In this document: piece after piece, positions 2,747 through 61,216 of the stretch
How the letters are laid out: every line of letters starts with the position of its first letter
Position numbering within the stretch: position 1 is the first letter of the stretch
Assembly: GCA_963712305.1 (NCBI GenBank)
Contig: CAVQHI010000002.1
Span: 1,705,075-1,769,074 of the forward strand
DNA: 64,000 bases
Direction: 5' to 3'
DNA from: an uncultured bacterium
GTDB lineage: Bacteria > Bacteroidota > Rhodothermia > Balneolales > DATFMH01
The notes under the pieces: generated by a model
What the model saw: only the letters and a program-made list of their open reading frames with translations
The model's database searches: none
What the model was told of the DNA's origin: nothing
Translations under genes and position numbers: made by a program

Positions 2747-3790
2747 ATGGCGTGTGAAACTAAAATATCGTTGAGAAGTAAGATTATACGAAGGTCGTAT
2801 TCGCCATTTTCTCTCTTCATAGTTCTGGGATTCCTGCTCTTGACCACCGTCCGTACTCATGCTCAATCAGTTGATATACGTGTGCATGACCCGGTGATGA
2901 TAAAACAAGGGAATACTTATTATGTATTCTGTACAGGTCCCGGAATAACTGTTTACTCCTCACGGGATATGAAGAACTGGAAGCGTGAACATCATGTCTT
3001 CGATAAAGCTCCGGACTGGACACAAAAGATCGTTCCGGGTTTCCGCAATTTCGAGTGGGCCCCGGACATTTCATTTCATAATGGTAAGTACTACCTGTAC
3101 TACGCAGTATCAGCTTTCGGAAAGAACACATCTGCCATTGGTCTGGCTACGAATACCACACTCGATTCGGCCGATCCGAACTATCATTGGAAAGATCTTG
3201 GATATGTTATTCAATCGGTGCCTGGGAGAGATTTATGGAATGCCATCGATCCCAATCTCATTCTTGATGAATCAGGTACAGCATGGCTGGATTTCGGCTC
3301 TTTTTGGCATGGTATTAAACTGGTCAAAATGGCCCCGGATTTAACCAAAATCGCGCAGCCGCAGGAATGGCATACCATAGCCAGCAGGGCAAGAAATTGG
3401 AAAGTGCCCGATGCAAAACCGGGGGATGCTGCAATCGAGGCACCATTCATTTTTCATAAAAGGAACTACTACTATTTGTTCGTTTCGTTTGATTATTGCT
3501 GCCGTGGCGTGAATAGCAACTACAAGGTTATGGTCGGCAGATCGGATAAAGTGACAGGTCCCTATGTTGATAAAGATGGTGTTAAAATGAGGGATGGAGG
3601 CGGTACACTCTTGTTGCAAGGAAACAAGCAATGGCCGGGTGTGGGACACGAAGGTGTCTATACATTTGACGGCACCGACTACATTATCTTCCACGGGTAT
3701 GATGCTTCTGATAAAGGTAAATCCAAATTATGGATCGAACGGTTGCACTGGACTAAGAATGGATGGCCTGAGGCCTCGCTCAAAGAATGA
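2747..3790 (+). CDS. Arabinan endo-1,5-alpha-L-arabinanase, GH43
   Basis: VHDP, WAPD, NAIDP, FGSFW, IEAP and SFDYCCRG motifs; signal-peptide-like N-terminus. Confidence 0.9.
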   Translation: MACETKISLRSKIIRRSYSPFSLFIVLGFLLLTTVRTHAQSVDIRVHDPVMIKQGNTYYVFCTGPGITVYSSRDMKNWKREHHVFDKAPDWTQKIVPGFRNFEWAPDISFHNGKYYLYYAVSAFGKNTSAIGLATNTTLDSADPNYHWKDLGYVIQSVPGRDLWNAIDPNLILDESGTAWLDFGSFWHGIKLVKMAPDLTKIAQPQEWHTIASRARNWKVPDAKPGDAAIEAPFIFHKRNYYYLFVSFDYCCRGVNSNYKVMVGRSDKVTGPYVDKDGVKMRDGGGTLLLQGNKQWPGVGHEGVYTFDGTDYIIFHGYDASDKGKSKLWIERLHWTKNGWPEASLKE

Positions 3791-3839
3791 TATCAGCGAC
3801 AGATATCTAAAAACAGAGGCATGCAATAAGACTCAGTAA

Positions 3840-6800
3840 ATGACATCAAAAGATTCCATTTGGAAACCAGGATCGGGATTATTCTTGATGGTACTTCTAA
3901 TCTCAGCCTGCTCATACCGACAACCTCCGCTGACATGGCATGAGGGTAAGGGGTTTCGCTGGGCTGGTTTGGCACATGGTTCTGATGGGGTTGGATTCAG
4001 GAAATTGGATTCCGATAAAACGGGCATCACTTTTGAAAATCATCTTTCTGAAGATGAGATTGTTAAGAATCGAAACTTGCTCAACGGATCGGGTGTTGCG
4101 GCCGGTGATGTAGATGGGGACGGCTTGGTGGATTTATACTTTGCACAACTCGATGGTCCCAACAAGCTGTATAAAAATCTGGGTGGATTCAGATTCAGAG
4201 ATATTACGAAAGAAGCTGGCCTGGCCCATAAGGGATACTTGTCAACAGGGGTTACGTTTGCCGATGTGGATGGCGATGGTGATCTGGATTTACTGGTTAC
4301 CTCACTCGCACAGGGAAACGTGATCTATTTAAATGACGGGAAAGGACATTTCACACTTGATAAGAACAGCGGTTTAAAAGGCAAAAAGGGAAGCATGTCA
4401 ATGGCCCTGGCCGATATCGATGGCGATGGCGACCTGGACTTGTATATTGCCAATTATAAAGAAGAGGCTGTCAGAGATTTATATAGTCCCTCTCAACTGG
4501 TACTTACAAAAATTGTTAAAAAGGATGGAGACAACTACTCGGTGATTCCACCTTTCGACAAGTATTACACCGTTATTAATGCTCCGGACGGACCAAAATT
4601 ACGAGAGACCGGGGAAGATGACGAACTTTATCTCAATGATGGAAAAGGACACTTTTCGAGAGTTCGGGATGTGGCGGATCGTTTTCTCGATGAAAATGGA
4701 AAACCGGAGGGCTTTAAACCCGATTGGGGACTTACTGCGAAATTCCAGGATCTGAATAATGATGGTCTTCCCGATCTCTATGTGTGTAATGATTTCTGGA
4801 CTCCTGACCGTATCTGGATCAACCAGGAAAACGGGACTTTCAAAGCGCTGAGTAATTTGGCGGTTAGAACCATGAGTTTTTCTTCCATGTCGGTTGATTT
4901 TTCGGATATTAACCGTGATGGCATCACAGATTTCTTTGTAACCGAAATGCTAAGTCCGGATCACAGGACACGAATGCGGCAGTTTGCTTCCTATCCGCCC
5001 GTGATGCCAGGGATCGGTGATATTGAGAGTCATCCGCAGTATACGAGAAACACAATGTTTCTGGGCCGTAAAGATGGCACCTATGCTGAAATAGCACAAT
5101 ACAGTGGTGTTGATGCCACCGGCTGGTCATGGGCCACTAATTTTCTTGATGTTGACCTTGACGGTTACGAGGATTTGGTCATAAATACGGGTAATGCATA
5201 TGATGAACTCGACATGGATACGCAGGAATACATCGGACAATTGAGCAAAAAGAATAATGGAAATATAAAAGGATACATATTAAGGTATCCGCCATTGAAA
5301 CTGTCCAATGTGATCCTTAGAAACAATCATGATCTTACTTTTTCGGACAAGAGCAAGGCCTGGGGATTTGGTGAAAAAGATGTATCCAACGGGATGGCAC
5401 TTGCCGATCTGGATAACGACGGCGACCTGGATATTGTGGATAATCGACTGAATGAAGAAGCTGGTGTTTACGAAAACACCGCCTCTGCGCCACGTATAGC
5501 TGTTCGGTTAAGAGGTCAAAAACCAAATACACAAGGTATTGGAGCCAAAATTGAACTTTTTGGGAAACCGGTTAAACAAACAAAGCAAATCGAAGCTGGT
5601 GGAGGGTACCTTTCGGGATCAGAAGCTGAGGCTGTATTTGCAGCACGTAGTGACGATTCAGACCACAAGATCATTGTTACATGGCCATCTGGAGTACAAA
5701 CTATTGTTGATAGTGTGAAGGGGGACAGGATTTATGAGATATCAGAACCGGATCATAAGAACTTGTCACCTGGTGAACCGGCGAAGAAGATGGAACAAAA
5801 GGTAGTACATCCAATCTTCCGGGATGTTTCTGACAGAATTAATCATAGACATCATGAGGAGCAGTATGATGATTTCAAGGTTCAGCCGCTGCTGCCGGTC
5901 AAGCTTAGCCAATTAGGTCCCGGTATTGCCTGGATCGATTACAATCATGATGGATATGATGATTTGTTCATAGGCAGTGGGAAAGGTGGCAATCTGGATG
6001 TTTATCAAAATCTCGGAAGTGGTCGTTTTAGACTTAGACATCTGAGCAAAATTTCAGAGAAAGCACCTGGTGATGAGACGGCAATCATAGGATGGAATAC
6101 GCAAAAAAGAACGACGGTTCTAGTGGGTAGTTCAAACTATGAGCAAAAAGACAGAGCCAAAGTTCCAGCGGCTTACCAATACTCAATAAGTGGCAATAAC
6201 ATCTCAGAAACTGGGAGAATACCTGGTAGTGTGTCTTCAACAGGAACCTTGGCTGCAGCTGACGTGGATGGGGACGGGGATTTGGATCTGTTCGTCGGTG
6301 GTCGTTTCGTTCCTGGCCATTACCCGATGGATGCGACGTCAAGATTGTATCTAAATGATCGAGGCCATTTCAGTCTTGACCAACAAGATACATCCGTATT
6401 TAAAAATATAGGTTTGGTCACGAATGCCGTGTTTACCGACTATGATCAGGATGGTGATCCCGATCTTTTGTGCAGTACTTCCTGGGGATCGATAAAATTA
6501 TTCAGGAATGACCACGGTGTCTTTCATGATGTTACCAAAGAGGTTGGCCTGGATAATTATGAAGGATGGTGGAATGGTATTGCAATGGGCGATTTCAACA
6601 ATGACGGATTACCTGATTTTGTTGCGACAAACAGGGGATTAAATACTGACTACCATGTTGTTGATGATCATCCTATAAAATTATTCTATGGTGACTTTAC
6701 GCACAACAATCGAACGGAAATTCTGGAAGCAAATTACGATTCTTCATTTAATGCGTATGTTCCCAGAAAGGATTTGTATTCTATTTATCAGTCGATACCG

Positions 6801-7556
6801 AATATCCTGAGGTATGTGAAATCGTACAGGCAGTTCGCAAACTCTACCCTAAGAGAATTACTGGGACAAAATCTTGCCTACGTTTCATCCAAAGAGATCA
6901 ATACGCTTCAGACTATGATTTTTATAAATAATGGAAAAGGGTTTACTGCTCATCCATTACCACTGGAAGCCCAGTTATCAGCAAATTTTTATGCCGGTGT
7001 CGTTGATTTTAATAATGACGGAAATGAGGATATATTCCTGAGTCAGAACTTTTACGCATTGCCCAAATTAACCTCCCGCTTCGATACCGGAAGGGGACTA
7101 TGGCTGGAGGGAGACGGGAAGGGTAGTTTCAAAGCCATATCAGGAGATGTCTCCGGAATTAAAATTTATGGTGAACAGAGAGGAGCCGCACTCGGTGATT
7201 TCAACAACGACGGAAAGATCGATCTGGCAGTGTCGCAGAACGGTGCAGCAACCAAGCTGTATCTTAATGCCACAAATAAAACCGGTTACGTCGTACGTTT
7301 GGTGGGTCGTTCGAAAAACAGGAATGCCGTCGGTTCCAGCATCAGGTTGGTTTATACGGATGGTAGCAGCGGGCCGAGGCGAGAAGTTCAGGCCGGATCA
7401 GGATATTGGTCTCAAAACAGCTACACTCAAATCCTGGGTTTCCAGGATTTGAAACAACCATCAAAGATCGAGGTAATCTGGCCAAATGGAAAACGACAGG
7501 TCGTACCTATCGAAAAGAATAGAATGAAATACATTATTAATTACCCGGGGAAATAA
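3840..7556 (+). CDS. FG-GAP/VCBS-repeat, ASPIC-UnbV (CRTAC1-like) lipoprotein
   Basis: Lipobox-like ISAC; many D-x-D-G-D-G-D-L-D repeats; two UnbV-like segments (GGGYLSG...VTWPSG and GSGYWSQ...VIWPNG). Confidence 0.85.
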   Translation: MTSKDSIWKPGSGLFLMVLLISACSYRQPPLTWHEGKGFRWAGLAHGSDGVGFRKLDSDKTGITFENHLSEDEIVKNRNLLNGSGVAAGDVDGDGLVDLYFAQLDGPNKLYKNLGGFRFRDITKEAGLAHKGYLSTGVTFADVDGDGDLDLLVTSLAQGNVIYLNDGKGHFTLDKNSGLKGKKGSMSMALADIDGDGDLDLYIANYKEEAVRDLYSPSQLVLTKIVKKDGDNYSVIPPFDKYYTVINAPDGPKLRETGEDDELYLNDGKGHFSRVRDVADRFLDENGKPEGFKPDWGLTAKFQDLNNDGLPDLYVCNDFWTPDRIWINQENGTFKALSNLAVRTMSFSSMSVDFSDINRDGITDFFVTEMLSPDHRTRMRQFASYPPVMPGIGDIESHPQYTRNTMFLGRKDGTYAEIAQYSGVDATGWSWATNFLDVDLDGYEDLVINTGNAYDELDMDTQEYIGQLSKKNNGNIKGYILRYPPLKLSNVILRNNHDLTFSDKSKAWGFGEKDVSNGMALADLDNDGDLDIVDNRLNEEAGVYENTASAPRIAVRLRGQKPNTQGIGAKIELFGKPVKQTKQIEAGGGYLSGSEAEAVFAARSDDSDHKIIVTWPSGVQTIVDSVKGDRIYEISEPDHKNLSPGEPAKKMEQKVVHPIFRDVSDRINHRHHEEQYDDFKVQPLLPVKLSQLGPGIAWIDYNHDGYDDLFIGSGKGGNLDVYQNLGSGRFRLRHLSKISEKAPGDETAIIGWNTQKRTTVLVGSSNYEQKDRAKVPAAYQYSISGNNISETGRIPGSVSSTGTLAAADVDGDGDLDLFVGGRFVPGHYPMDATSRLYLNDRGHFSLDQQDTSVFKNIGLVTNAVFTDYDQDGDPDLLCSTSWGSIKLFRNDHGVFHDVTKEVGLDNYEGWWNGIAMGDFNNDGLPDFVATNRGLNTDYHVVDDHPIKLFYGDFTHNNRTEILEANYDSSFNAYVPRKDLYSIYQSIPNILRYVKSYRQFANSTLRELLGQNLAYVSSKEINTLQTMIFINNGKGFTAHPLPLEAQLSANFYAGVVDFNNDGNEDIFLSQNFYALPKLTSRFDTGRGLWLEGDGKGSFKAISGDVSGIKIYGEQRGAALGDFNNDGKIDLAVSQNGAATKLYLNATNKTGYVVRLVGRSKNRNAVGSSIRLVYTDGSSGPRREVQAGSGYWSQNSYTQILGFQDLKQPSKIEVIWPNGKRQVVPIEKNRMKYIINYPGK

Positions 7557-7568
7557 TCCTTTGAAGTA

Positions 7569-9521
7569 ATGATTAAGAAGATATACACCTTTGTTATTGC
7601 AGCGCTGATATTTGCGTCGTGCTCATCCCTCAAAAAGAAATATGAGGTTAAGAGTCCGGATGGTCAGCTTTCGGTTGAATTCTCAATGTCACCCGATCAC
7701 ATGGCCTTGTATCGAATTCAACGGGAAGATTCTGTGGTTCTTCAGAACTCGCACCTTGGGGTCGTTCGAAACGACGGAGATTTCTCCCAAAATCTGAAGC
7801 TTGAATCGGTATCCGATGTTAAACCGGTTAGTGAAAGCTACACGATGAGAACGGGCAAGAGAAAGAACCGAACGTATCATGCCAACGAGCAGACCTACCG
7901 TCTGTCAAATGTTTCGGGTGATGAAATGGACATCACATTCAGGGTTTCGAACGATGGCGTTGCTTTTCGTTATCATTTCCCCGGCTCGAGTTCTGAGGAC
8001 AAGGAGATAGAGAAAGAGACGACATCCTTTCATTTCACAGGTTCAGCTAAGGCATGGCTGCAACCTATGGACAGCGCTAAATCGGGCTGGCGGCGGACCA
8101 ATCCATCGTATGAAGAAGATTACCTGCAGGGCATCGCTGTTGGCACGCCATCGCCTTCAGCAGCCGGTTGGGTATTCCCGGCGCTGTTTAAATCAGGATC
8201 CAACTGGGTCGTGATTACCGAAGCGGGTTTAGACAGTACGTACTGTGCCTCGAGGCTGCAACAAAAATCGCCGAATGGTGAGTATCGGCTTGGCTTTCCA
8301 GATAAAGCAGAGGTATTTCCAGGTGGGGGATACAAGCCTAAAGCAAAGTTGCCGTGGAGCTCTCCATGGCGGATTATAGCTGTTGGATCGATGAAAACGA
8401 TTATGGAGTCGACCTTAGGCACTGATCTTGCAAAGCCGGCAGTAAAAATGGACTCTGCTTTTATTAAACCTGGTCGGGCGTCGTGGAGCTGGGCGCTGCT
8501 TAAAGACAACTCGATCGTATACGATGTCCAGAAACGGTTCATCGATTATGCCTCCGACATGCACTGGGAATATTGTCTGGTTGATGTGAACTGGGATACG
8601 ACAATTGGTTATGATCGGATTGCTGATCTTGCCAGGTATGCAGCCAAAAAGAACGTCGGACTCATCCTCTGGTACAATTCTTCCGGGAGCTGGAATACAA
8701 CGACCTATCATCCGAAGAGTAAACTGCTCACTCATGCCGATCGTGTTATGGAATTCAGCAGGCTTGAAAAGATGGGTATTAAGGGTGTTAAAGTCGATTT
8801 TTTCGGCGGGGACGGCGAGTCGATGATAAAGTATTATCTGGATATCCTGAAGGATGCGGCGACCTATCATCTCCTGGTCAATTTTCATGGAGCGACGTTG
8901 CCTCGTGGATGGGAACGAACATATCCAAATCTGATGACGATGGAAGCCGTGCGTGGTTTCGAGTACATCACATTCACCCAGGAGGATGCTGACAGGGAAC
9001 CCAACCATTGCACGATGCTACCGTTCACGCGAAACATATTTGACCCTATGGACTTCACTCCAATGAGCCTGTACAAAATTCCACGGATTGAAAGGCAAAC
9101 AACAGACGGGTTTGAATTGGCGCTCCCGGTGATTTTTACATCAGGTATCCAGCACTTTGCAGAGACCCCGGAAGGTATGTCCCATATGCCTGATTATGTG
9201 AAAAACTTTCTCAGGAAAGTCCCTGTGCACTGGGATGATACCCGATTCATAACCGGCTATCCTGGAAAACTCGTCGTTCTTGCACGGAAGTCTCAGGGAA
9301 CCTGGTATGTGGCAGGTATTAATGGTGAGGACTCGACCAAAGCAGTATCCGTGAATCTCTCGTTCCTGCAATATGGGCAACACGGGACTCTAATTACTGA
9401 TTCTGATTCAAAGATGCCGTTTTCAGAACAGGATGTTACCGTTCCTGCGAGCAAAACCCTGACTATCAATCTTCAGCGGAATGGTGGATTTGTCATCGTA
9501 TGGAAAAAGCAACAGATGTAG
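7569..9521 (+). CDS. Glycoside hydrolase family 97, lipoprotein
   Basis: FASC lipobox; VKSPDG, KPGRASWSW, GVKVDFF, NFHG, EAVRG and MDFTP motifs. Confidence 0.9.
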   Translation: MIKKIYTFVIAALIFASCSSLKKKYEVKSPDGQLSVEFSMSPDHMALYRIQREDSVVLQNSHLGVVRNDGDFSQNLKLESVSDVKPVSESYTMRTGKRKNRTYHANEQTYRLSNVSGDEMDITFRVSNDGVAFRYHFPGSSSEDKEIEKETTSFHFTGSAKAWLQPMDSAKSGWRRTNPSYEEDYLQGIAVGTPSPSAAGWVFPALFKSGSNWVVITEAGLDSTYCASRLQQKSPNGEYRLGFPDKAEVFPGGGYKPKAKLPWSSPWRIIAVGSMKTIMESTLGTDLAKPAVKMDSAFIKPGRASWSWALLKDNSIVYDVQKRFIDYASDMHWEYCLVDVNWDTTIGYDRIADLARYAAKKNVGLILWYNSSGSWNTTTYHPKSKLLTHADRVMEFSRLEKMGIKGVKVDFFGGDGESMIKYYLDILKDAATYHLLVNFHGATLPRGWERTYPNLMTMEAVRGFEYITFTQEDADREPNHCTMLPFTRNIFDPMDFTPMSLYKIPRIERQTTDGFELALPVIFTSGIQHFAETPEGMSHMPDYVKNFLRKVPVHWDDTRFITGYPGKLVVLARKSQGTWYVAGINGEDSTKAVSVNLSFLQYGQHGTLITDSDSKMPFSEQDVTVPASKTLTINLQRNGGFVIVWKKQQM

Positions 9522-9530
9522 CAAGCATAA

Positions 9531-11264
9531 ATGATCCAGCTAATGAAAGCTCCGAAAACGAGTATCCGATTCAGCCTCTTAATAGCACTCCTGCTATGCG
9601 GTTTGCTTAGTGGAAATTGTCTTGGACAAGGGATATCAGCGAAGCCAGACACGGCACATATCACCGTATATTTGGCAAAGGAGTTGGGGCCAATGAATCC
9701 GATCTGGGTCTACTTCGGCTATGATGAACCAAATTATACGTATATGAAAAACGGGAGAAAGCTAGTTAGAGAACTTTCGGAGTTAAGCCCGGTTCCCGTT
9801 CATATTCGTTCCCATAATTTCCTGAATAGCGGTGATGGAGTTCCATCATTGAAATGGGGCTCAACTAATGTGTATACGGAAGACAGTAACGGTAAACCGG
9901 TATACGACTGGAAAATCATTGACAAAATATTTGATACGTATGTACATAATGGTGTTCATCCCATCGTAGAGATTGGGTTTATGCCAAAGGCGCTCTCTAC
10001 TAAACCTTTACCTTACAAACATCACTGGGAGCCGGGAAAACCCTACAAGGATATTTACACCGGCTGGGCTTACCCGCCTACCAGTTATGAAAAGTGGGGT
10101 AATGTTGTTTCCAAATGGGTAACTCATTGCGTCGATCGATACGGAAAAGAGGCCGTTAGCAAGTGGCAGTGGGAGGTTTGGAATGAACCTAATATTGGTT
10201 ACTGGCAGGGCACCGAAGAGCAGTACTTTAAATTATATGATTATACAGCAGCTGCTGTGAAGGTAGCCTTCCCGGAAGCCAAAGTAGGCGGTCCTGCAGC
10301 AACAGGTCCGGGATGGGACAAAGCAGCCAAATTCCTAAAGGATTTTCTCGATCATTGTGATAACGGGAAAAATTACAAGACAGGGAAAACCGGAGCTCCG
10401 CTCGACTTTATCTCATACCATGCAAAGGGGAATCCCAAAGTTGTGGATGGACATATTCGGATGGGTATTAATTCAGAGCTGAATGATGTGGCGACCGGGT
10501 TCAAGATTGTATCTTCAAACCAGAAGTTTAAACACTTGCCAGTCATAATATCGGAATGTGATCCGGAGGGATGTGCCGCATGCTCGGTTAAGTTTGATCC
10601 CAATTACGCCTATCGCAACGGTACGATGTATCCAAGCTACACCGCTGCTGCCTTTTCAAGGATTTATAAATTGGCACTCAAGTATGACATTAACCTGCAG
10701 GGTGCTTTGACATGGGCGTTTGAATTCGAAAATCATCCGTGGTTTGCCGGGTTCAGGGATCTTGCTACAAACGGAGTTGCCAAGCCTATACTCAATATCT
10801 TTCGAATGTTCGGGATGATGCAGGGCCGATTTGTCCAAACGCAGGATCCCTCAGAAATCAAACTCGACAGCATTGTTACGAATGGCGCACATGGTGATAG
10901 TCCGGATATTGGCGTGATGGCAACTGTGTATGATCATTCCGCTTCTGTAATGATCTGGAATTACGACGATGATGCTGTGTCGGCTCCGGCGGCTGAAGTA
11001 TCTGTTCATGTCAGTCATTTGATGCAAAAACGCGTCTTATTACATCATTACCGGATCGATGAATATTACAGTAATGCCTATCAAAAATGGCTGGCTATGG
11101 GAGAACCAAAGAAAGTATCTGAAGATCAGTACCAAATCTTAGAAAGGGCAGGGCAATTGCAGCAATTGAGCTCCCCGAAATGGATTGACGTAAGTCATTA
11201 TGAAACCAATATCACATTCTCACTGCCAAGACATGGTGTGTCGTTGTTGAGGCTTTCTTGGTAA
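9531..11264 (+). CDS. GH39 beta-xylosidase-like glycoside hydrolase
   Basis: FGYDEPNY, EVWNEP (acid/base), SECDPEGCAAC and ALTWAFEFE motifs; signal peptide. Confidence 0.85.
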   Translation: MIQLMKAPKTSIRFSLLIALLLCGLLSGNCLGQGISAKPDTAHITVYLAKELGPMNPIWVYFGYDEPNYTYMKNGRKLVRELSELSPVPVHIRSHNFLNSGDGVPSLKWGSTNVYTEDSNGKPVYDWKIIDKIFDTYVHNGVHPIVEIGFMPKALSTKPLPYKHHWEPGKPYKDIYTGWAYPPTSYEKWGNVVSKWVTHCVDRYGKEAVSKWQWEVWNEPNIGYWQGTEEQYFKLYDYTAAAVKVAFPEAKVGGPAATGPGWDKAAKFLKDFLDHCDNGKNYKTGKTGAPLDFISYHAKGNPKVVDGHIRMGINSELNDVATGFKIVSSNQKFKHLPVIISECDPEGCAACSVKFDPNYAYRNGTMYPSYTAAAFSRIYKLALKYDINLQGALTWAFEFENHPWFAGFRDLATNGVAKPILNIFRMFGMMQGRFVQTQDPSEIKLDSIVTNGAHGDSPDIGVMATVYDHSASVMIWNYDDDAVSAPAAEVSVHVSHLMQKRVLLHHYRIDEYYSNAYQKWLAMGEPKKVSEDQYQILERAGQLQQLSSPKWIDVSHYETNITFSLPRHGVSLLRLSW

Positions 11265-52999: not shown

Positions 53000-53668
53000 T
53001 TACTGTTTGCTGGTTACTGTAACCTGTTCCACTTTTACTCTCTTCCGTAAAACGTCGATGTGATCTTTGTGTTCGTCTATCACATTGGTCAGGGCAGTTT
53101 TGAAGTCTTCAAGAACACTTTTTCTCATCTTATCGAGCTTCTTTTTCTTCAGGCCCGAATTGACTCTTTCCTGCCGTTTCAGATATAAAATCAGGGAGCG
53201 CAGTGTGTTAGGAACATCGGCAATCTGGAGTGCACCGTTCGTATCACTAATATAAATTCCGAACGGCTTCCGGCCGTCTTCGATACTTAATGAAGCGGTT
53301 TCGAAATCATGTTCCAGCTTGTCGATGGTTTCGCCAAGTGAATCAAGCGATTCCGGTATCATTACCCTAAAACTGATATCACGGCCGGAGTAACGTTTTG
53401 TTTGACCATTCACATTGATTACCGCTTCTTTTCCTGTGTGCGACACCATCGGCTCCAGGAAGCTTGCGTAATATCCGTAAGCGAGCGCTTCCGGAATCGT
53501 AACTTCCCGGGCATTGCGTAATACAAGCCATACGATCAGCCCGATGGATGCAGCCGCTACAAGACCCAATATTAGTCCAAACCAGAAGTTTTCCATGCTC
53601 TGTAAAGGGTAGAAAACGCCAAAGGCACCTAACAATGAAATGAAAGCATCGACCATTTTACCTTTCAT
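53000..53668 (-). CDS. Transmembrane prokaryotic STING-domain protein (Cap13-like 2TM-STING)
   Basis: Two N-terminal hydrophobic helices, then ALAYGYYASFL, VMIPESLD, GRKPF, IADVPNTL and LEDFKTAL, matching in order the bacterial STING blocks (A.GYY..F / IP..L / R..F / D.P.TL / E.F...L). Confidence 0.78.
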   Translation of the reverse strand: MKGKMVDAFISLLGAFGVFYPLQSMENFWFGLILGLVAAASIGLIVWLVLRNAREVTIPEALAYGYYASFLEPMVSHTGKEAVINVNGQTKRYSGRDISFRVMIPESLDSLGETIDKLEHDFETASLSIEDGRKPFGIYISDTNGALQIADVPNTLRSLILYLKRQERVNSGLKKKKLDKMRKSVLEDFKTALTNVIDEHKDHIDVLRKRVKVEQVTVTSKQ

Positions 53669-54274
53669 ACGGCTGTTACTTTTAGGGTTGATTGTAATCT
53701 GCAGTATTCAATAAAACTGAGACATATTTCCGGATTGATTTTCTGACCCAGCTAAATTGCCTGGGAATTAAGACTTCCAGATTCAATCTAATAATCTCGG
53801 TCTGCAATCATGTAAAATGTCCGTATAAGAGACAAATAACACAACGTTTATGGGAAAATTAATGTTATCCTTGAATAATAAGGTCAAGACATTTTGTAAT
53901 TCTGTTGAAATAACATAAGATTCGGATAAGCATTTGAGAAAGTCTGGTAAGATAATTTTCTAAATATATTATCCGGATTAATTCGGTGATAAAGAAAGCT
54001 GCTTTACAATGTAAACCGGTTTGAGAGATGGAGATTAGACTTGTTCCCGGGAAATGGCAAAAAAAGGTTTCTGATGGTTAAATGAGAGCAACAAATCATA
54101 TGGAAAAATTCCGAGGTTATAGATACAATGAAGAAGGATGACAACGTAAACTAAATTTCAAAAGAAAGTTATCCCACGATTTTAAAAACGACTGTTTAAA
54201 CGACAGCGATTAACTATTAAAAAAAAATTTATCGAGGACGAAGAACCTCCCGATTAAAATAATTGAGGGTTGAA

Positions 54275-54655
54275 ATGAGCAACAAAAAGGTAATTTTTGT
54301 TTCCTACGCCGACGAGGATAAGGGAAAACGCGATCTTCTTAGGGACATTCCGCTTAATACCACAACTCCTTTTCGGTTTGTGGACGTACCAGATGGCGAT
54401 GTTCATGACGAGAAGTGGAGAGATGGTGTGCGTAAGAGTATTTTGAAATCAGATGCCGTGATCGCACTCATCAGCAAAAACACGTTAAGCTCACTGGGAC
54501 AGCGATGGGAAATTGATTGTGCCAGCGACGAAGAGAAGGAGATGATAGGATTATGGGCGTATGATGATGATACCACGCGCCCGGGTATTATCGAAAGATA
54601 TAGAACGATCCACTGGACGAAAGAAGATATATCCCGGTTTATCGATAGTCTGTAG
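54275..54655 (+). CDS. Stand-alone TIR domain protein (ThsB / DUF1863-like)
   Basis: IFVSY..ED, SDAVIALISKNT and RWEI (putative catalytic Glu); ATG 54275 preferred over TTG 54263. Confidence 0.82.
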   Translation: MSNKKVIFVSYADEDKGKRDLLRDIPLNTTTPFRFVDVPDGDVHDEKWRDGVRKSILKSDAVIALISKNTLSSLGQRWEIDCASDEEKEMIGLWAYDDDTTRPGIIERYRTIHWTKEDISRFIDSL

Positions 54656-54751: not shown

Positions 54752-55429
54752 ATGGTCCGGTTGCCTTTTAAAAACAGAAAAAGTGCCGGCAATTTGCTGG
54801 CGCAGGCGCTGTCCGCTTATCGCGACCGGCAGGATCTCGTTGTGCTGGCTTTGCCAAGGGGCGGGGTTCCGGTTGGTGCAAAAGTTGCCGAAGCTATGGA
54901 CGCACCGCTTGATGTGATGATCGTCCGGAAGCTTGGTACGCCCGGGCAGGAAGAGTTAGCAATGGGAGCCATCGCCAGCGGGGGAATAAGAGTGTTGAAT
55001 GAAGAACTGGTAACCTTTGCTGGAATTGATCAGGAAACCATTGATGAAGTATCAACCCTTGAACAGAAAGAACTGGAACGCCAGGAAAAGATTTATCGCG
55101 GCGGACGGGCCCGTGTTGATCTGGAGGGACAGACAGTTTTACTTGTCGATGATGGATTGGCTACAGGCACAACTATGAGGGCAGCGGTACAAGCAACACG
55201 AGCAGAAGGTGCTGCCGTGATCGTTGTGGCCATACCCGTTGCCCCTCCCGATACCATTGAACAGCTTTATAATATTGCCGACGATGTGGTCTGCCTGCAA
55301 AGCCCCGAACCGTTTGGGGGCGTTGGACTCTGGTACCTTGATTTTCGACAGACTACGGACCAGGAAGTCATTGATTTGCTATATAGTGCACGAACACGTT
55401 CATATAAATCCAATATCGAAGAAGAATGA
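54752..55429 (+). CDS. Putative phosphoribosyltransferase (type I PRT)
   Basis: LPRGGVPV, RKLG.PG.EELAMGA and the PRPP loop VDDGLATG. Confidence 0.88.
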   Translation: MVRLPFKNRKSAGNLLAQALSAYRDRQDLVVLALPRGGVPVGAKVAEAMDAPLDVMIVRKLGTPGQEELAMGAIASGGIRVLNEELVTFAGIDQETIDEVSTLEQKELERQEKIYRGGRARVDLEGQTVLLVDDGLATGTTMRAAVQATRAEGAAVIVVAIPVAPPDTIEQLYNIADDVVCLQSPEPFGGVGLWYLDFRQTTDQEVIDLLYSARTRSYKSNIEEE

Positions 55430-56106
55430 TTATGGAAAATACAAATATACAAGCCTACGAGACTAAGCCTATTCCGGTTATGGTAAAAACCGAAACCGTT
55501 GATCTGCCCGGTGACCTTGTAATCCCTGAAGACAGCAAAGGATTGATCATATTTGCTCATGGAAGCGGAAGCAGCCGTTTTAGTCCGCGTAACCGGGCTG
55601 TAGCCGCATCACTAAATAAAGCTGGACTAGGAACACTATTGTTTGATTTGCTCACAGCCCGGGAAAATGAAGTTGATGAAGAAACATGTGAATACCGGTT
55701 CAATATTGATTTGCTGGGTATACGGCTAACACAGACTCTTGATTGGCTGCTGACACGTAAAGACACCGTTGGAATGAATATCGGAGTGTTTGGTGCAAGC
55801 ACGGGTGCCGCCGCCGCCCTCATTGCAGCAACTGAACGGCCGGAACGAGTACACGCCGTAGTTTCAAGAGGTGGCCGTCCAGATCTGGCAAAAGAACACC
55901 TCGCCCGGGTACGCACCCCATCTCTTTTCATTGTGGGCGAAGATGATGCGTCTGTCGTGGCCATGAACAGAAGTGCACTTTATGATTTGCGTTGTGAAAA
56001 AAAACTGGAAATCATTCCCGGAGCCAATCACCTCTTCGAGGAACCCGGTAAACTCGATGATGTAGCAACTCTCGCGAAAGATTGGTTTACTAAATGGATT
56101 GAATAA
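55426..56106 (+). CDS. Alpha/beta hydrolase (dienelactone hydrolase-like), PRTase-associated
   Basis: FAHGSGSSR.SPRN, GASTG, SRGGRPDLA and HLFEEPG motifs; overlaps the PRTase stop. Confidence 0.88.
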   Translation: MIMENTNIQAYETKPIPVMVKTETVDLPGDLVIPEDSKGLIIFAHGSGSSRFSPRNRAVAASLNKAGLGTLLFDLLTARENEVDEETCEYRFNIDLLGIRLTQTLDWLLTRKDTVGMNIGVFGASTGAAAALIAATERPERVHAVVSRGGRPDLAKEHLARVRTPSLFIVGEDDASVVAMNRSALYDLRCEKKLEIIPGANHLFEEPGKLDDVATLAKDWFTKWIE

Positions 56107-59068: not shown

Positions 59069-61216
59069 ATGGCAACTAAGAAAAATGCATCTTCCAGTTC
59101 TAAGAAACCGGGCAGCTTTCGCATTACCGGACAAATTCAGCGAGAGCAGACCGACAGACAACCAGGAGAACTAAAACTAACCGCTTATGTCTTTGATAAA
59201 GCCGGGCATTTGCTTGGCAGCTCAGAAGTCGACGGCAAAGGCAACTACAATGTTGCCGTAAAACTAGCCAGACCTGCTGACGTTGAGTTACTTGTGGGGC
59301 CGGCTGATATGTCGGACGAGATACGCTCTTCAAGCGCATACCGGAAGTCGTTATCCGCAAAAGATTGGAAAGGAGAAGGAGACCAGTTTCGTCTTAAATT
59401 TGACGCTTCCCTGCCGTTTGAAATATGGTATCCGTGGTGGCCGACACGCATCTGTGTTTCAGGCCATGTTCGGAAAGTGAGTCATCAGGATGATGGCACT
59501 GAAATTTGTGCCGTCCCATTTGTAAAGGTCGAAATATTCGATGTTGACCGGGAGTTCTGCCTTTGGCCATATATCCGGGACTGGTGGAAAGTTCTGCTCG
59601 ACCGGCCAGTGATTCGATTGCCGGAATTGCAAAAGAAGCCGCCCTTTCCGCCCGAGCCTTTTCCCGGACCTGATCCTGTTCCTGATATTAACCTGGGGCC
59701 ATTTTCAGAACTCACTGGAGGGTTTGGTACTTCTCCGTTAGAACGGATAGCCTTAAACCCGCAGCCTCTCCCACCGAGAAGCAGTTTGAGTAATCCGGTT
59801 TCAAGGGTATCATTAAATCCGCAACCGGAACCACCTAGCCTCCAGACCTTGCAAACAGATACTTCAAGGGTTGGAGAGGCGCGCTTGATAGACAGCAGTA
59901 TTGCCTCGAGACTCGAGAAACTGACCGTGACTTCGAAGATTGCACCATGGATTATCTTTCCCGGTTGCTTTTACAGTAAGGTCAAGGTTTGTGAAACTAC
60001 GACCGATTGCAATGGGTATTTTAACTGCTGCTTCAAATGGTGGCCATTCCACTTCCGCAATGGCCGGCTTCGTTACGACTCCAGACCGGATATTATCATC
60101 CGTGTAACACAGGTCATTAACGGTGTTCCCACTGTCATCTATCTTGATCCTTACACCAGCACCCGCTGGAATGTTACAAATGCTCATATCGATCTGTTCC
60201 TTGACAACGAGGAGATCGTCTGCAGCCACGGTAACTGCTATGATCCGGAACCCGGCTCACCCGTTTTCTTCACCCGAATCGGTGATGATGAAGTCTATAA
60301 GATCAACCAGGCCAGTGGACTATATAACGAAGGAGCACTGGCTAATGTCGCGTACGGCGGAAACCTGTTGGTATACGGCCAGTTTGGTGATGATTTGACA
60401 TCTGGCTCGCCTGCACGTTACTATCGTCTTTCATATGCCAGGAACGGGACCACTGATTTCACTCCGATAACAGCGTCACTTTCTGACACGCGGGTATCAA
60501 AGAGTACGTTAAACGGTGAATCCCATCCACTTGGCCCACAAACCGTAAACGGTGTGCCGGCTTTGTATGAAGTCCGCGATTTCAGTGATTATTACTGGTA
60601 CAACCCGGACTGGCTCGGTACATGGTACACCAAACAGGTTGAACCAGACACGGATAAATATATCCTTCGGCTGGAAGTCTTCGATCAGAACGGGAATAAG
60701 CTTACGACAGCTATGGGCGTAGACTACAGGAATGGGGCAGGTTCCGGAAACGGCACACCACCCGCTCCGCTGCCGCCAATGACTGATCGTTGCGATCTCG
60801 TGCTTACCCTGGACAACAAACGGGCGGAAGTAGAGCTTACCATTCCAGCTGTTATCAACGAATGCGGCGTAATTCCATGGACGCCGGCATTGTCCCTGGA
60901 TTTCAATGTTCATGTATCACAGGAAAACAATCGCCTGAGATCATGGGGACTTTATTATACCAAAGGGATCAATCCTACTATCCACTACCTCGACAGCGGG
61001 TATTCCAATAATGGTCTGCCCGGCACTGTAAATAAAACGGTGCCCGGAGGGACGGCATCACCATCGCCGGGAACCGGCATGCTGGCGAACCTGAACAGTA
61101 CATGCGCGTTTGCACTCAAACTCTACGCTTATGCACATGTACGGGATGGGCGTCACTTTATCTACTATACTGAGGAGATAAAAGCGATTGCCATTGAAAA
61201 ATGCTCGTCTTCCTGA
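59069..61216 (+). CDS. Large hypothetical protein with a Pro-rich insert and two LNPQPxPP motifs
   Basis: 715-aa ORF; AGGAG RBS; Cys-rich, apparently beta-rich domains; no signal peptide. Confidence 0.8.
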   Translation: MATKKNASSSSKKPGSFRITGQIQREQTDRQPGELKLTAYVFDKAGHLLGSSEVDGKGNYNVAVKLARPADVELLVGPADMSDEIRSSSAYRKSLSAKDWKGEGDQFRLKFDASLPFEIWYPWWPTRICVSGHVRKVSHQDDGTEICAVPFVKVEIFDVDREFCLWPYIRDWWKVLLDRPVIRLPELQKKPPFPPEPFPGPDPVPDINLGPFSELTGGFGTSPLERIALNPQPLPPRSSLSNPVSRVSLNPQPEPPSLQTLQTDTSRVGEARLIDSSIASRLEKLTVTSKIAPWIIFPGCFYSKVKVCETTTDCNGYFNCCFKWWPFHFRNGRLRYDSRPDIIIRVTQVINGVPTVIYLDPYTSTRWNVTNAHIDLFLDNEEIVCSHGNCYDPEPGSPVFFTRIGDDEVYKINQASGLYNEGALANVAYGGNLLVYGQFGDDLTSGSPARYYRLSYARNGTTDFTPITASLSDTRVSKSTLNGESHPLGPQTVNGVPALYEVRDFSDYYWYNPDWLGTWYTKQVEPDTDKYILRLEVFDQNGNKLTTAMGVDYRNGAGSGNGTPPAPLPPMTDRCDLVLTLDNKRAEVELTIPAVINECGVIPWTPALSLDFNVHVSQENNRLRSWGLYYTKGINPTIHYLDSGYSNNGLPGTVNKTVPGGTASPSPGTGMLANLNSTCAFALKLYAYAHVRDGRHFIYYTEEIKAIAIEKCSSS

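Follow-up and report, generated by a model that had tools for sequence, protein, structure and literature searches.

STING is the textbook receptor for cyclic dinucleotides from bacteria to humans, and immune signals derived from ADP-ribose are classically attributed to TIR enzymes, from bacteria to plants. In the bacterial system Panoptes, a constitutive cyclic nucleotide keeps an effector of two transmembrane helices and a SAVED domain (2TM-SAVED) in the off state. In type IV Thoeris, a short TIR protein is paired with a caspase-like protease and makes the cyclic ADP-ribose N7-cADPR, and the E79Q exchange in PsTIR abolishes defence (Rousset, 2024, bioRxiv). Effectors are swapped within single TIR clusters of Thoeris, including effectors shared with the cyclic oligonucleotide-based antiphage signalling system CBASS (bioRxiv 10.64898/2025.12.03.692087). 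The function of bacterial transmembrane (TM) STING proteins was stated to be unclear (Culbertson and Levin, 2023), and the lid over the nucleotide pocket of bacterial STING carries the motif R-X-(Y/F) in class I or R-X-R in class II, by which the base is read or stacked upon (Ko, 2022). In the literature examined, i.e., in those parts of the cited sources that were considered and without their supplementary tables, neither a STING effector of a Thoeris system nor a class of cyclase-less bacterial 2TM-STINGs is described, and stand-alone STINGs are discussed for eukaryotes only. Here, we report on a head-to-head pair of a 2TM-STING gene and a stand-alone ThsB-type TIR gene, which we tentatively regard as a candidate Thoeris variant with a STING effector. 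The pair lies in a stretch of 64,000 nt, in the following called the window (contig CAVQHI010000002.1, positions 1,705,075-1,769,074), of a genome (G000) of 5.34 Mb in 5 contigs with a completeness of 98.4%; all feature coordinates refer to the window.

The 2TM-STING protein

The 2TM-STING gene (53000..53668, minus strand) encodes a protein of 222 aa composed of an N-terminal helical hairpin and a prokaryotic STING domain, and the TIR gene (54275..54655, plus strand) encodes 126 aa (130 aa if translation begins at the alternative TTG codon at 54263). Both open reading frames (ORFs) were confirmed exactly as drawn in a preliminary description of this DNA, and the AT-rich divergent spacer of about 600 bp mentioned there measures 606 bp (53669..54274) at a GC content of 33% vs 44.7% for the window.

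The proposed identity as STING was borne out at the level of both profile and fold. The 222-aa protein reaches 60.2 bits with Pfam prok_STING (PF20300; cut-off 27.1) over residues 60-193 and matches the STING half of the PADLOC TIR-STING effector model, but stays below the equivalog cut-off of NCBIfam Cap12 (29 bits vs 450). A profile of 23 sequences matched Cap12/bacterial STING chains in the PDB with an E-value of 3e-17, and the AlphaFold2 (AF2) model, built on 23 relatives, was obtained with a pLDDT of 84.2 and a pTM of 0.73. It features two helices, residues 2-24 and 28-54, followed by a mixed alpha/beta domain with the STING fold, and in a Foldseek search of this model against the PDB all rows listed to rank 37 were bacterial STINGs, with 7un9 as best match (E 5e-9) and TM-scores by target of up to 0.83. 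A search of the ESM Atlas with the STING protein gave no usable match. The nucleotide-sensor domain covers residues 58-216 (53021..53497, minus strand), as delimited by Pfam, the profile, AF2 and Foldseek, and the N-terminal helices (residues 2-54; 53507..53665, minus strand) were assigned by DSSP on the AF2 model together with Kyte-Doolittle hydropathy. Two TM helices had been proposed: helix 2 (residues 30-50) is strongly hydrophobic with Kyte-Doolittle values of 2.4-2.7 and represents a clear TM segment, whereas helix 1 is only moderately hydrophobic (1.41 over 19 aa; 1.84 over residues 8-22). The gene is single-copy in the genome.

Residue roles in the ligand pocket were taken from Ko (2022) and Hou (2023) and transferred to the query by aligning it with 8hwj and 6wt4 in HMMER. 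The stacking Phe (F70), the lid aromatic residue (F136), the Asp (D151) and the phosphate-contacting Thr (T155) are kept, whereas the phosphate-contacting Asn is changed to S69 and the base-reading lid Arg to K134. According to the alignments, the motif K134-P135-F136 (53261..53269, minus strand) occupies the position of R-X-(Y/F) in STINGs specific for cyclic di-GMP (c-di-GMP), and neither of the two described lid motifs is found in the protein. The preliminary description had named an Arg in GRKPF and an Asp in ADVP as nucleotide-binding residues, and only the latter assignment survived. The Arg (R133; codon 53270-53272, minus strand, read from the sequence) is not conserved, with R/Q/K/K/K in five close homologues and M in the congener G003, whereas the adjacent Lys134 is invariant and sits at the canonical lid-Arg position in alignments to ElSTING. 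The Asp (D151; codon gat, 53216..53218, minus strand) matches in the alignments the Asp that contacts guanine N2 or adenine in solved bacterial STINGs, i.e., D251/D252/D169. All seven cyclase-linked STINGs aligned carry a lid of the form R-X-(Y/R/H), which is not present in the cyclase-less membrane STINGs aligned. Within the query clade the core residues of STING do not vary, and the gene is under purifying selection where intact, with a pN/pS of 0.18-0.26 vs locus L010 and G003 at a pS near saturation.

The TIR and its caspase-linked family

The short TIR protein exceeds the cut-offs of both Pfam ThsB_TIR (30.9 vs 21.2 bits) and TIR_2 (29.9 vs 28 bits), reaches 27 bits with PADLOC ThsB1, and has as its nearest ESM Atlas clusters ThsB_TIR proteins of 122-125 aa (0.97). 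Profile searches of the PDB yielded sub-significant ThsB/TIR matches (E 0.09-0.2). A profile of seven close TIRs retrieved 223 homologues, almost all of 123-126 aa and 44-56% identical to the query, whose source names span several phyla; the family occurs in 11/401 genomes of a phylum sample and 10/401 of a class sample. W78-E79-I80-x-C82-A83 is invariant in an alignment of 36 family sequences, and Glu79 (codon GAA, 54509..54511, plus strand), conserved in 36/36, is the putative catalytic Glu, in line with the earlier assignment of this role to the Glu of RWEI in a free TIR. It shares its residue number with the catalytic E79 of PsTIR, to which it is putatively equivalent. At other, near-invariant positions the clade of the query genus departs from the family, namely with RDIP in place of KGQS and PDG in place of SVK.

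The family profile and the TIR tree point to the origin of this protein. The query scores 187 bits with the family profile, at which caspase-linked members score 145-229, and six of the seven members with at least 145 bits outside the genus (in G372, G226, G363, G319, G436 and G674) are directly followed by a Peptidase_C14 protein of 315-338 aa, which corresponds to the gene layout of type IV Thoeris, while the seventh, in G379, is accompanied by a TIR-8xMP membrane protein instead of a caspase. More distant members are paired with SIR2-STALD (ThsA; G321) or TIR-8xMP (G395). In the tree, a clade of 97% support with four caspase-linked TIRs encloses the query clade, whose own branch is long (0.61); another two TIRs linked to a caspase fall outside of this supported clade. 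From this position among caspase-linked TIRs we infer that the ancestral partner was a caspase, and the protein can be regarded as a descendant of the type IV Thoeris TIRs, the match being one of architecture, length and residue number.

Some members of the family showed arrangements of their own. The G379 locus (L112, G379:C1:1082000-1100000) holds three tandem TIR-type genes at 8008-9731 (plus strand) and no caspase, encoding 161 aa, a TIR-8xMP fusion of 224 aa and the family member of ~124 aa, and a similar pair of TIR and TIR-8xMP is found in L116 (G395). In G655, two identical family copies on two contigs (L122, L124) each contain a TAA stop, which marks them as a pseudogene in a duplicated region.

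Absence of the usual partners from the genome

None of the searches of the whole genome for a CD-NTase (a nucleotidyltransferase like cGAS and DncV) returned a match, be it with the SMODS profile (PF18144), a profile of six STING-adjacent cyclases (A4; E<=1), the PADLOC models PDLC00784 and PDLC00788, or by an hmmsearch of 26,425 six-frame pieces (E<=10), which a very divergent cyclase might escape. SMODS alone is a weak test for such cyclases, since it gives 17 bits or no match at all for those adjoining STING in related genomes, which reach up to 487 bits with PADLOC; as a sole test it was therefore dropped for the A4 profile and the PADLOC models. The A4 profile recovers only its six training sequences in the neighbour set. 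No GGDEF gene was found in the genome, and two DAC genes lie on another contig (C1). As judged from this gene content, the genome makes cyclic di-AMP (c-di-AMP) and lacks the genes for c-di-GMP synthesis.

On the side of the TIR, no homologue of the family's caspase partner was detected in the genome by tblastn (E<=1e-2) or hmmsearch (E<=1), and no intact ThsA is present among its SIR2 matches. Two SIR2_2 matches were considered as ThsA and rejected, one being a 147-aa fragment among broken defence genes and the other a 365-aa protein without a PADLOC match. Traces of a cyclase or caspase pseudogene were found at neither E<=10 nor E<=1, respectively. What the preliminary description had noted for 64 kb, i.e., the lack of a CD-NTase, a GGDEF gene and a ThsA-type effector and hence of the usual partner of each gene, consequently extends to the whole genome as regards cyclase, GGDEF, intact ThsA and caspase; the lack of a DAC gene is true of the window only. 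The genome encodes a second TIR, a lone bSEFIR-like gene of 184 aa (L093 9341-9895, plus strand; G000:C1:~705340-705894; PADLOC 246 bits), whose neighbours are unrelated and include an IS110-family transposase at a distance of ~4.5 kb.

Distribution of cyclase-less STINGs

The query STING is a rare protein with 5 clusters at 90% identity, and a STING profile search among 1.84 billion representatives retrieved only 49 clusters at 50% identity, most of which are 200-230 aa long with the same hairpin. A scan of metagenome contigs with a narrower STING alignment (A3) added two short contigs, and a scan of genome contigs one metagenome-assembled genome similar to G003. In the phylum sample PF20300 was detected in 11/401 genomes, and the 2TM-STING profile in 13/283 genomes of the order; most STING matches in the samples are open frames of about 310-320 aa. 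A cyclase, confirmed by PADLOC or profile, is located directly upstream in 7/18 STING loci outside the genus, and none in 11/18. For the intact membrane-type STINGs among them a cyclase is present in 1/7 (G083), and the STING-type cyclase profile, applied to whole genomes, found no match in any of five (G512, G513, G543, G437, G003).

Several of these cyclase-less genes reside in recurrent surroundings. In G512, G543, G515 and G513, a DUF4440/SnoaL-like gene (~165 aa) is located upstream of a 2TM-STING of 216-218 aa, with a 4-nt overlap in three loci and syntenic flanks of housekeeping type, and G537 holds a truncated STING copy with a piece of the DUF4440/SnoaL-like gene (L055-L057, L059 and L060 for the five genomes). 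The lid of the DUF4440-linked STINGs reads T-P-F-W-x-R. The STING of G437 is preceded by an extracytoplasmic function (ECF) sigma factor and an LTXXQ protein, and that of G320 (265 aa) is flanked, in the gene group at 3665-7851 (minus strand) of L031 (G320:C43), by a hybrid histidine kinase/response regulator with PAS domains and a beta-lactamase-fold gene, with a 4-nt overlap and no cyclase. A further relative on a short metagenome contig (L011) is situated between sugar-metabolism genes. In the STING-domain tree, the query clade forms a separate, well-supported deep branch apart from the other cyclase-less clades. At L029 (G366:C1, ~9819-10241, plus strand), the Pfam STING model matched with 80 bits in a 683-aa open frame, in a different frame from the ORF call and beside a rhamnosidase gene.

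A second combination of STING and type IV Thoeris in G425

Elements of CBASS and type IV Thoeris also occur together at a locus of G425 (L027, G425:C9:12000-31990). Here, a cyclase-less TIR-STING of 321 aa with an R-D-Y lid, a membrane protein of 90 aa and a type IV caspase orthologue of full length (379 bits across the entire profile) are encoded at 9803-10768, 10801-11073 and 11102-12049 of L027, respectively, all on the minus strand. The ~20-kb region, with 8-10 kb on each side, contains neither a short TIR nor a cyclase, and no STING-type (CdnE-profile) cyclase was found in the genome, which is 100% complete. In a six-frame scan, the type IV caspase was absent from all of the 18 other STING loci. 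This locus is an independent second mix of STING and type IV Thoeris and possibly represents a hybrid of CBASS and Thoeris itself.

The pair within the genus and its neighbourhood

G003 features the same head-to-head pair, followed by a phosphoribosyltransferase (PRTase) gene and a gene of the dienelactone hydrolase family (DLH). G000 and G003 have intact ORFs for both proteins, STING is intact also in L010, and G001 lacks STING, TIR and PRTase. In the window, the PRTase gene (54752..55429, plus strand; Pfam PF00156, 69.4 bits) starts 96 nt downstream of the TIR gene, and the DLH gene (55426..56106, plus strand) overlaps its stop by 4 nt. Between congeners, the genes of this block share 63-74% aa identity, and the housekeeping genes flanking STING on its other side 84-94%. 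Other genera of the family encode PRTase homologues of ~40% identity without TIR or STING. The PRTase-DLH pair as such (54752-56106; L032/L033), including the 4-nt overlap, is kept beyond the genus at ~40% identity and diverges between congeners (63-68% aa) about as fast as STING.

Two blocks in the spacer are conserved, which probably represent a promoter or operator each: one upstream of STING (53805..53869; 89% over 65 nt vs L010 and 86% over 35 nt vs G003), and a non-coding 139-nt block upstream of the TIR (54053..54187, plus strand; 73% with G003 and G002). A riboswitch or leader RNA in the latter was considered and rejected, with no Rfam match at E<=1, a fold z-score of +1.24 and a double change in 1/25 predicted pairs among 3 sequences.

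Around the pair, we found genes for a TPR-repeat Ser/Thr kinase, an aquaporin, a GAF-SpoIIE phosphatase and a glycosyltransferase as well as an acyl-CoA dehydrogenase, which is the other neighbour of STING, a NIPSNAP protein, a DedA protein and a transglycosylase; these surroundings are not a defence island. An ORF of 715 aa with Pro-rich linkers (59069-61216, plus strand) matches no Pfam family at E<=0.001 and is missing from the syntenic regions of G003 and G002. About 12 kb past the window end (L095, G000:C2:1780320-1783586), there are apparently broken defence genes, comprising a specificity subunit of a type I restriction-modification system, the 147-aa SIR2 fragment with weak ThsA/Aga_SIR2 matches, and an N-terminal piece (121 aa) of PADLOC PDC-S19.

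Discussion

We consider it the best explanation, at a probability of roughly 0.4 and nearly tied with the view of two independent orphans, that the pair is a candidate Thoeris variant with a STING effector, i.e., a two-gene, Thoeris-like anti-phage signalling system which would have emerged by effector swapping. In this system, the small TIR derived from type IV Thoeris would sense infection and convert NAD+ into a signal of the cyclic ADP-ribose type. Its lineage would have lost the caspase-like effector, and the 2TM-STING without a cyclase would take over as receptor-effector. A ligand made by the TIR, or derived from what it makes, would bind to the re-modelled STING pocket and could then drive oligomerisation of STING, whereupon the hairpin would damage the membrane and the infection would be aborted. 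The more specific claim, that the locus is a new Thoeris type in which the prokaryotic STING domain, known to date only as a CBASS receptor for cyclic dinucleotides, acts as receptor for a TIR-made, NAD-derived signal and thereby drives a membrane-disrupting hairpin, is somewhat more tentative still. Support comes from the accelerated branch of the TIR, the re-modelled lid of STING and the fact that each gene stands without the usual partner of its lineage, as well as from the purifying selection on both genes, the invariant Glu79, the retention of the pair in G003 with a remnant in G002, the effector swapping documented for Thoeris, and the second mix in G425. Moreover, with two rare families (11/401 genomes each) and no defence island around them, a chance adjacency is unlikely.

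A considerable number of observations, however, weigh against this proposal, and many of them favour the alternative of two independent neighbouring orphans, which we regard as a serious contender and only slightly less probable. There, STING would be one of a wider, as yet undescribed group of stand-alone, chromosomally inherited membrane STINGs of bacteria without c-di-GMP, reading a cyclic dinucleotide without a dedicated CD-NTase, e.g., c-di-AMP as a regulator, c-di-AMP as the signal of a Panoptes-like guard responding to its depletion by a phage sponge, or a foreign or phage dinucleotide, while the TIR would act alone as an infection-triggered NADase or work with PRTase-DLH. Consistently, six of the seven intact membrane-type STINGs outside the genus (G320, G512, G543, G515, G513 and G437) have neither a cyclase in the fetched region nor a TIR of the query family, and cyclase-less 2TM-STINGs without any TIR, found in the five DUF4440 genomes, G437, G320 and L011, lie among housekeeping-type genes in conserved synteny. 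Cyclase-lessness is thus recurrent among membrane STINGs and by itself calls for no TIR. A TIR of the query family was absent from 19 other STING loci (six-frame scan) and from five other orphan-STING genomes, and in the 401-genome sample, with ThsB_TIR in 97 genomes and STING in 11, the two coincide in no genomes other than G000 and G378, with a distance of ~3.3 Mb between them in the latter. The pairing represents one evolutionary event in one genus. The co-occurrence of homologues that the preliminary description had looked to is kept in G003 and is nearly missing outside the genus.

The pocket of STING still looks cyclic-dinucleotide-like, as far as F70, F136, D151 and T155 tell, and every STING ligand discussed in the literature examined is a cyclic dinucleotide and none derived from ADP-ribose. 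Bacterial STING can take c-di-AMP by shape complementarity with the lid Arg unused (Hou, 2023), and with two DAC genes and no GGDEF gene the genome would offer this ligand. With regard to gene order, STING and TIR are divergent with the 606-bp spacer in between and not operonic, whereas the Thoeris loci examined, like the type IV operon presented by Rousset (2024), have neighbouring genes that point the same way; the TIR is instead co-oriented with PRTase-DLH 96 nt downstream in three congeners. G002 retains TIR-PRTase-DLH, but a ~635-bp deletion took the promoter-proximal (5') 80% of its STING gene, the remnant of which is 78% identical to G003 vs 88-91% in the flanks. Between the TIR genes of G002 and G003 there are 17 synonymous but only 3 non-synonymous changes, i.e., the TIR is under purifying selection as well (dN/dS 0.04), and this selection after the loss of STING argues for a TIR function without need for STING. 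Finally, the AF2 model of the TIR is poor (pLDDT 47), so that its fold rests on profiles and the ESM Atlas.

Against two unrelated orphans speaks the coincidence itself, as two rare immune-type genes, each partnerless, would have come to lie side by side outside of any island. The clade of the query STING is also unrelated to the other orphan clades and differs from them in its lid, and a constitutive ligand such as c-di-AMP would require an inverted or gated logic, with ElSTING not being activated by c-di-AMP (Hou, 2023). PRTase-DLH was rejected as the true partner of the TIR and is regarded as context, since no homologue of either gene occurs in 9 loci around other members of the TIR family and PRTase homologues of other genera come without the TIR, and G425 provides another mix of STING and type IV Thoeris. 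The suggestion that the two genes complement each other, already made in the preliminary description, thus gained from the caspase-linked ancestry of the TIR, the lost lid motif and G425, and suffered from the lack of any link beyond the genus and from G002. Given that G002 lost STING yet keeps its TIR, a functional link between TIR and STING is plausible but unproven.

Two further explanations appear considerably less convincing. The genes could be relics of a former hotspot with a complete type IV Thoeris system and a complete CBASS, from which caspase and cyclase were deleted, leaving survivors that are functionless or on their way out. The deletion of STING in G002, the missing block in G001, the faster divergence of the block genes relative to the housekeeping genes on the STING side, the lid, which is degenerate by canonical standards, and the broken defence genes past the window would fit this picture. 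We nevertheless consider it improbable in view of the intact ORFs in G000 and G003 and of STING in L010, the purifying selection on both genes, the invariance of the putative catalytic Glu and of the STING core residues in the clade, and the lack of pseudogene traces of either partner. By analogy to Cap12, one could also imagine a split relay, in which STING senses a ligand or phage cue and the free TIR serves as trans-acting NADase effector. TIR-STING fusions are the commonest form of bacterial STING, as reflected in the length of most sampled STING frames, and the TIR-STING next to a type IV caspase in G425 suggests that STING-controlled TIRs can feed Thoeris-type effectors. The query TIR, however, belongs to the ThsB/type IV Thoeris family and not to the TIR type of Cap12, ThsB_TIR is absent from the TIR-STING genomes of the sample except for unrelated places in G378, the N-terminus of STING is taken by the membrane hairpin, and the TIR persists without STING in G002, all of which renders such a relay very unlikely. 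The probability remaining beyond these four readings is left open.

If the candidate Thoeris variant proves true, the ligand range of STING would extend beyond cyclic dinucleotides, and sensor domains, besides killing domains, would be exchanged between CBASS and Thoeris. Together with G425, it would mean that STING and TIR/cADPR signalling, both of which are pathways shared with animals and plants, have been wired together in bacteria, bridging two nucleotide-based immune pathways. Even if the adjacency is coincidental, most membrane STINGs of the order (6/7 intact ones outside the genus) are cyclase-less, with non-canonical lids and in non-defence synteny. Such STINGs are not reported as a group of their own in the literature examined, and c-di-AMP is an obvious candidate for their ligand.

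Comparison with known systems

With Panoptes, the locus shares, by pure analogy, a 2TM sensor-effector without an infection-triggered cyclase and a housekeeping cyclic dinucleotide in the cell; the sensor is, however, STING and not SAVED, and there is no adjacent mCpol-like gene. Cap12 TIR-STING likewise unites TIR and STING in one locus, and the best PADLOC and NCBIfam models of the STING half are those of Cap12, whereas the query consists of two separate genes with a TIR of ThsB type, falls far short of the NCBIfam Cap12 cut-off and lacks a cyclase. With the TM-STING effector of CBASS (Cap13-type; e.g., the TM-STING of Flavobacteriaceae noted by Culbertson and Levin, 2023), the query shares the architecture of a two-helix hairpin and a STING domain at ~220 aa as well as the fold. 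The query keeps F70, F136, D151 and T155, but has no CD-NTase in its operon or genome, forms a deep branch of its own and carries the K-P-F lid, unlike the R-A-R lid of the cyclase-linked TM-STING found in our survey (G083, L030).

On the part of the TIR, type IV Thoeris (Rousset, 2024) is among the closest systems: by profile and tree the query falls into the same family of short TIRs, with Glu79 conserved, but it differs in the absence of a caspase-like effector next to it or elsewhere in the genome, in its long branch and in its divergently oriented STING-TM neighbour. This adjacent 2TM-STING combines the sensor and TM architecture of a Thoeris effector, yet it is transcribed divergently, and STING is not known as a sensor of TIR products. 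A recent catalogue describes Thoeris types V-XI and 29 putative types (bioRxiv 10.64898/2025.12.03.692087), in the main text of which the term STING has no occurrence, its supplementary tables lying outside the text covered. Several of the effectors listed there are membrane proteins or domains shared with CBASS, and the combination of one TIR cluster with varied effectors is the same principle by which a 2TM-STING could have been recruited as partner of a type IV Thoeris TIR.

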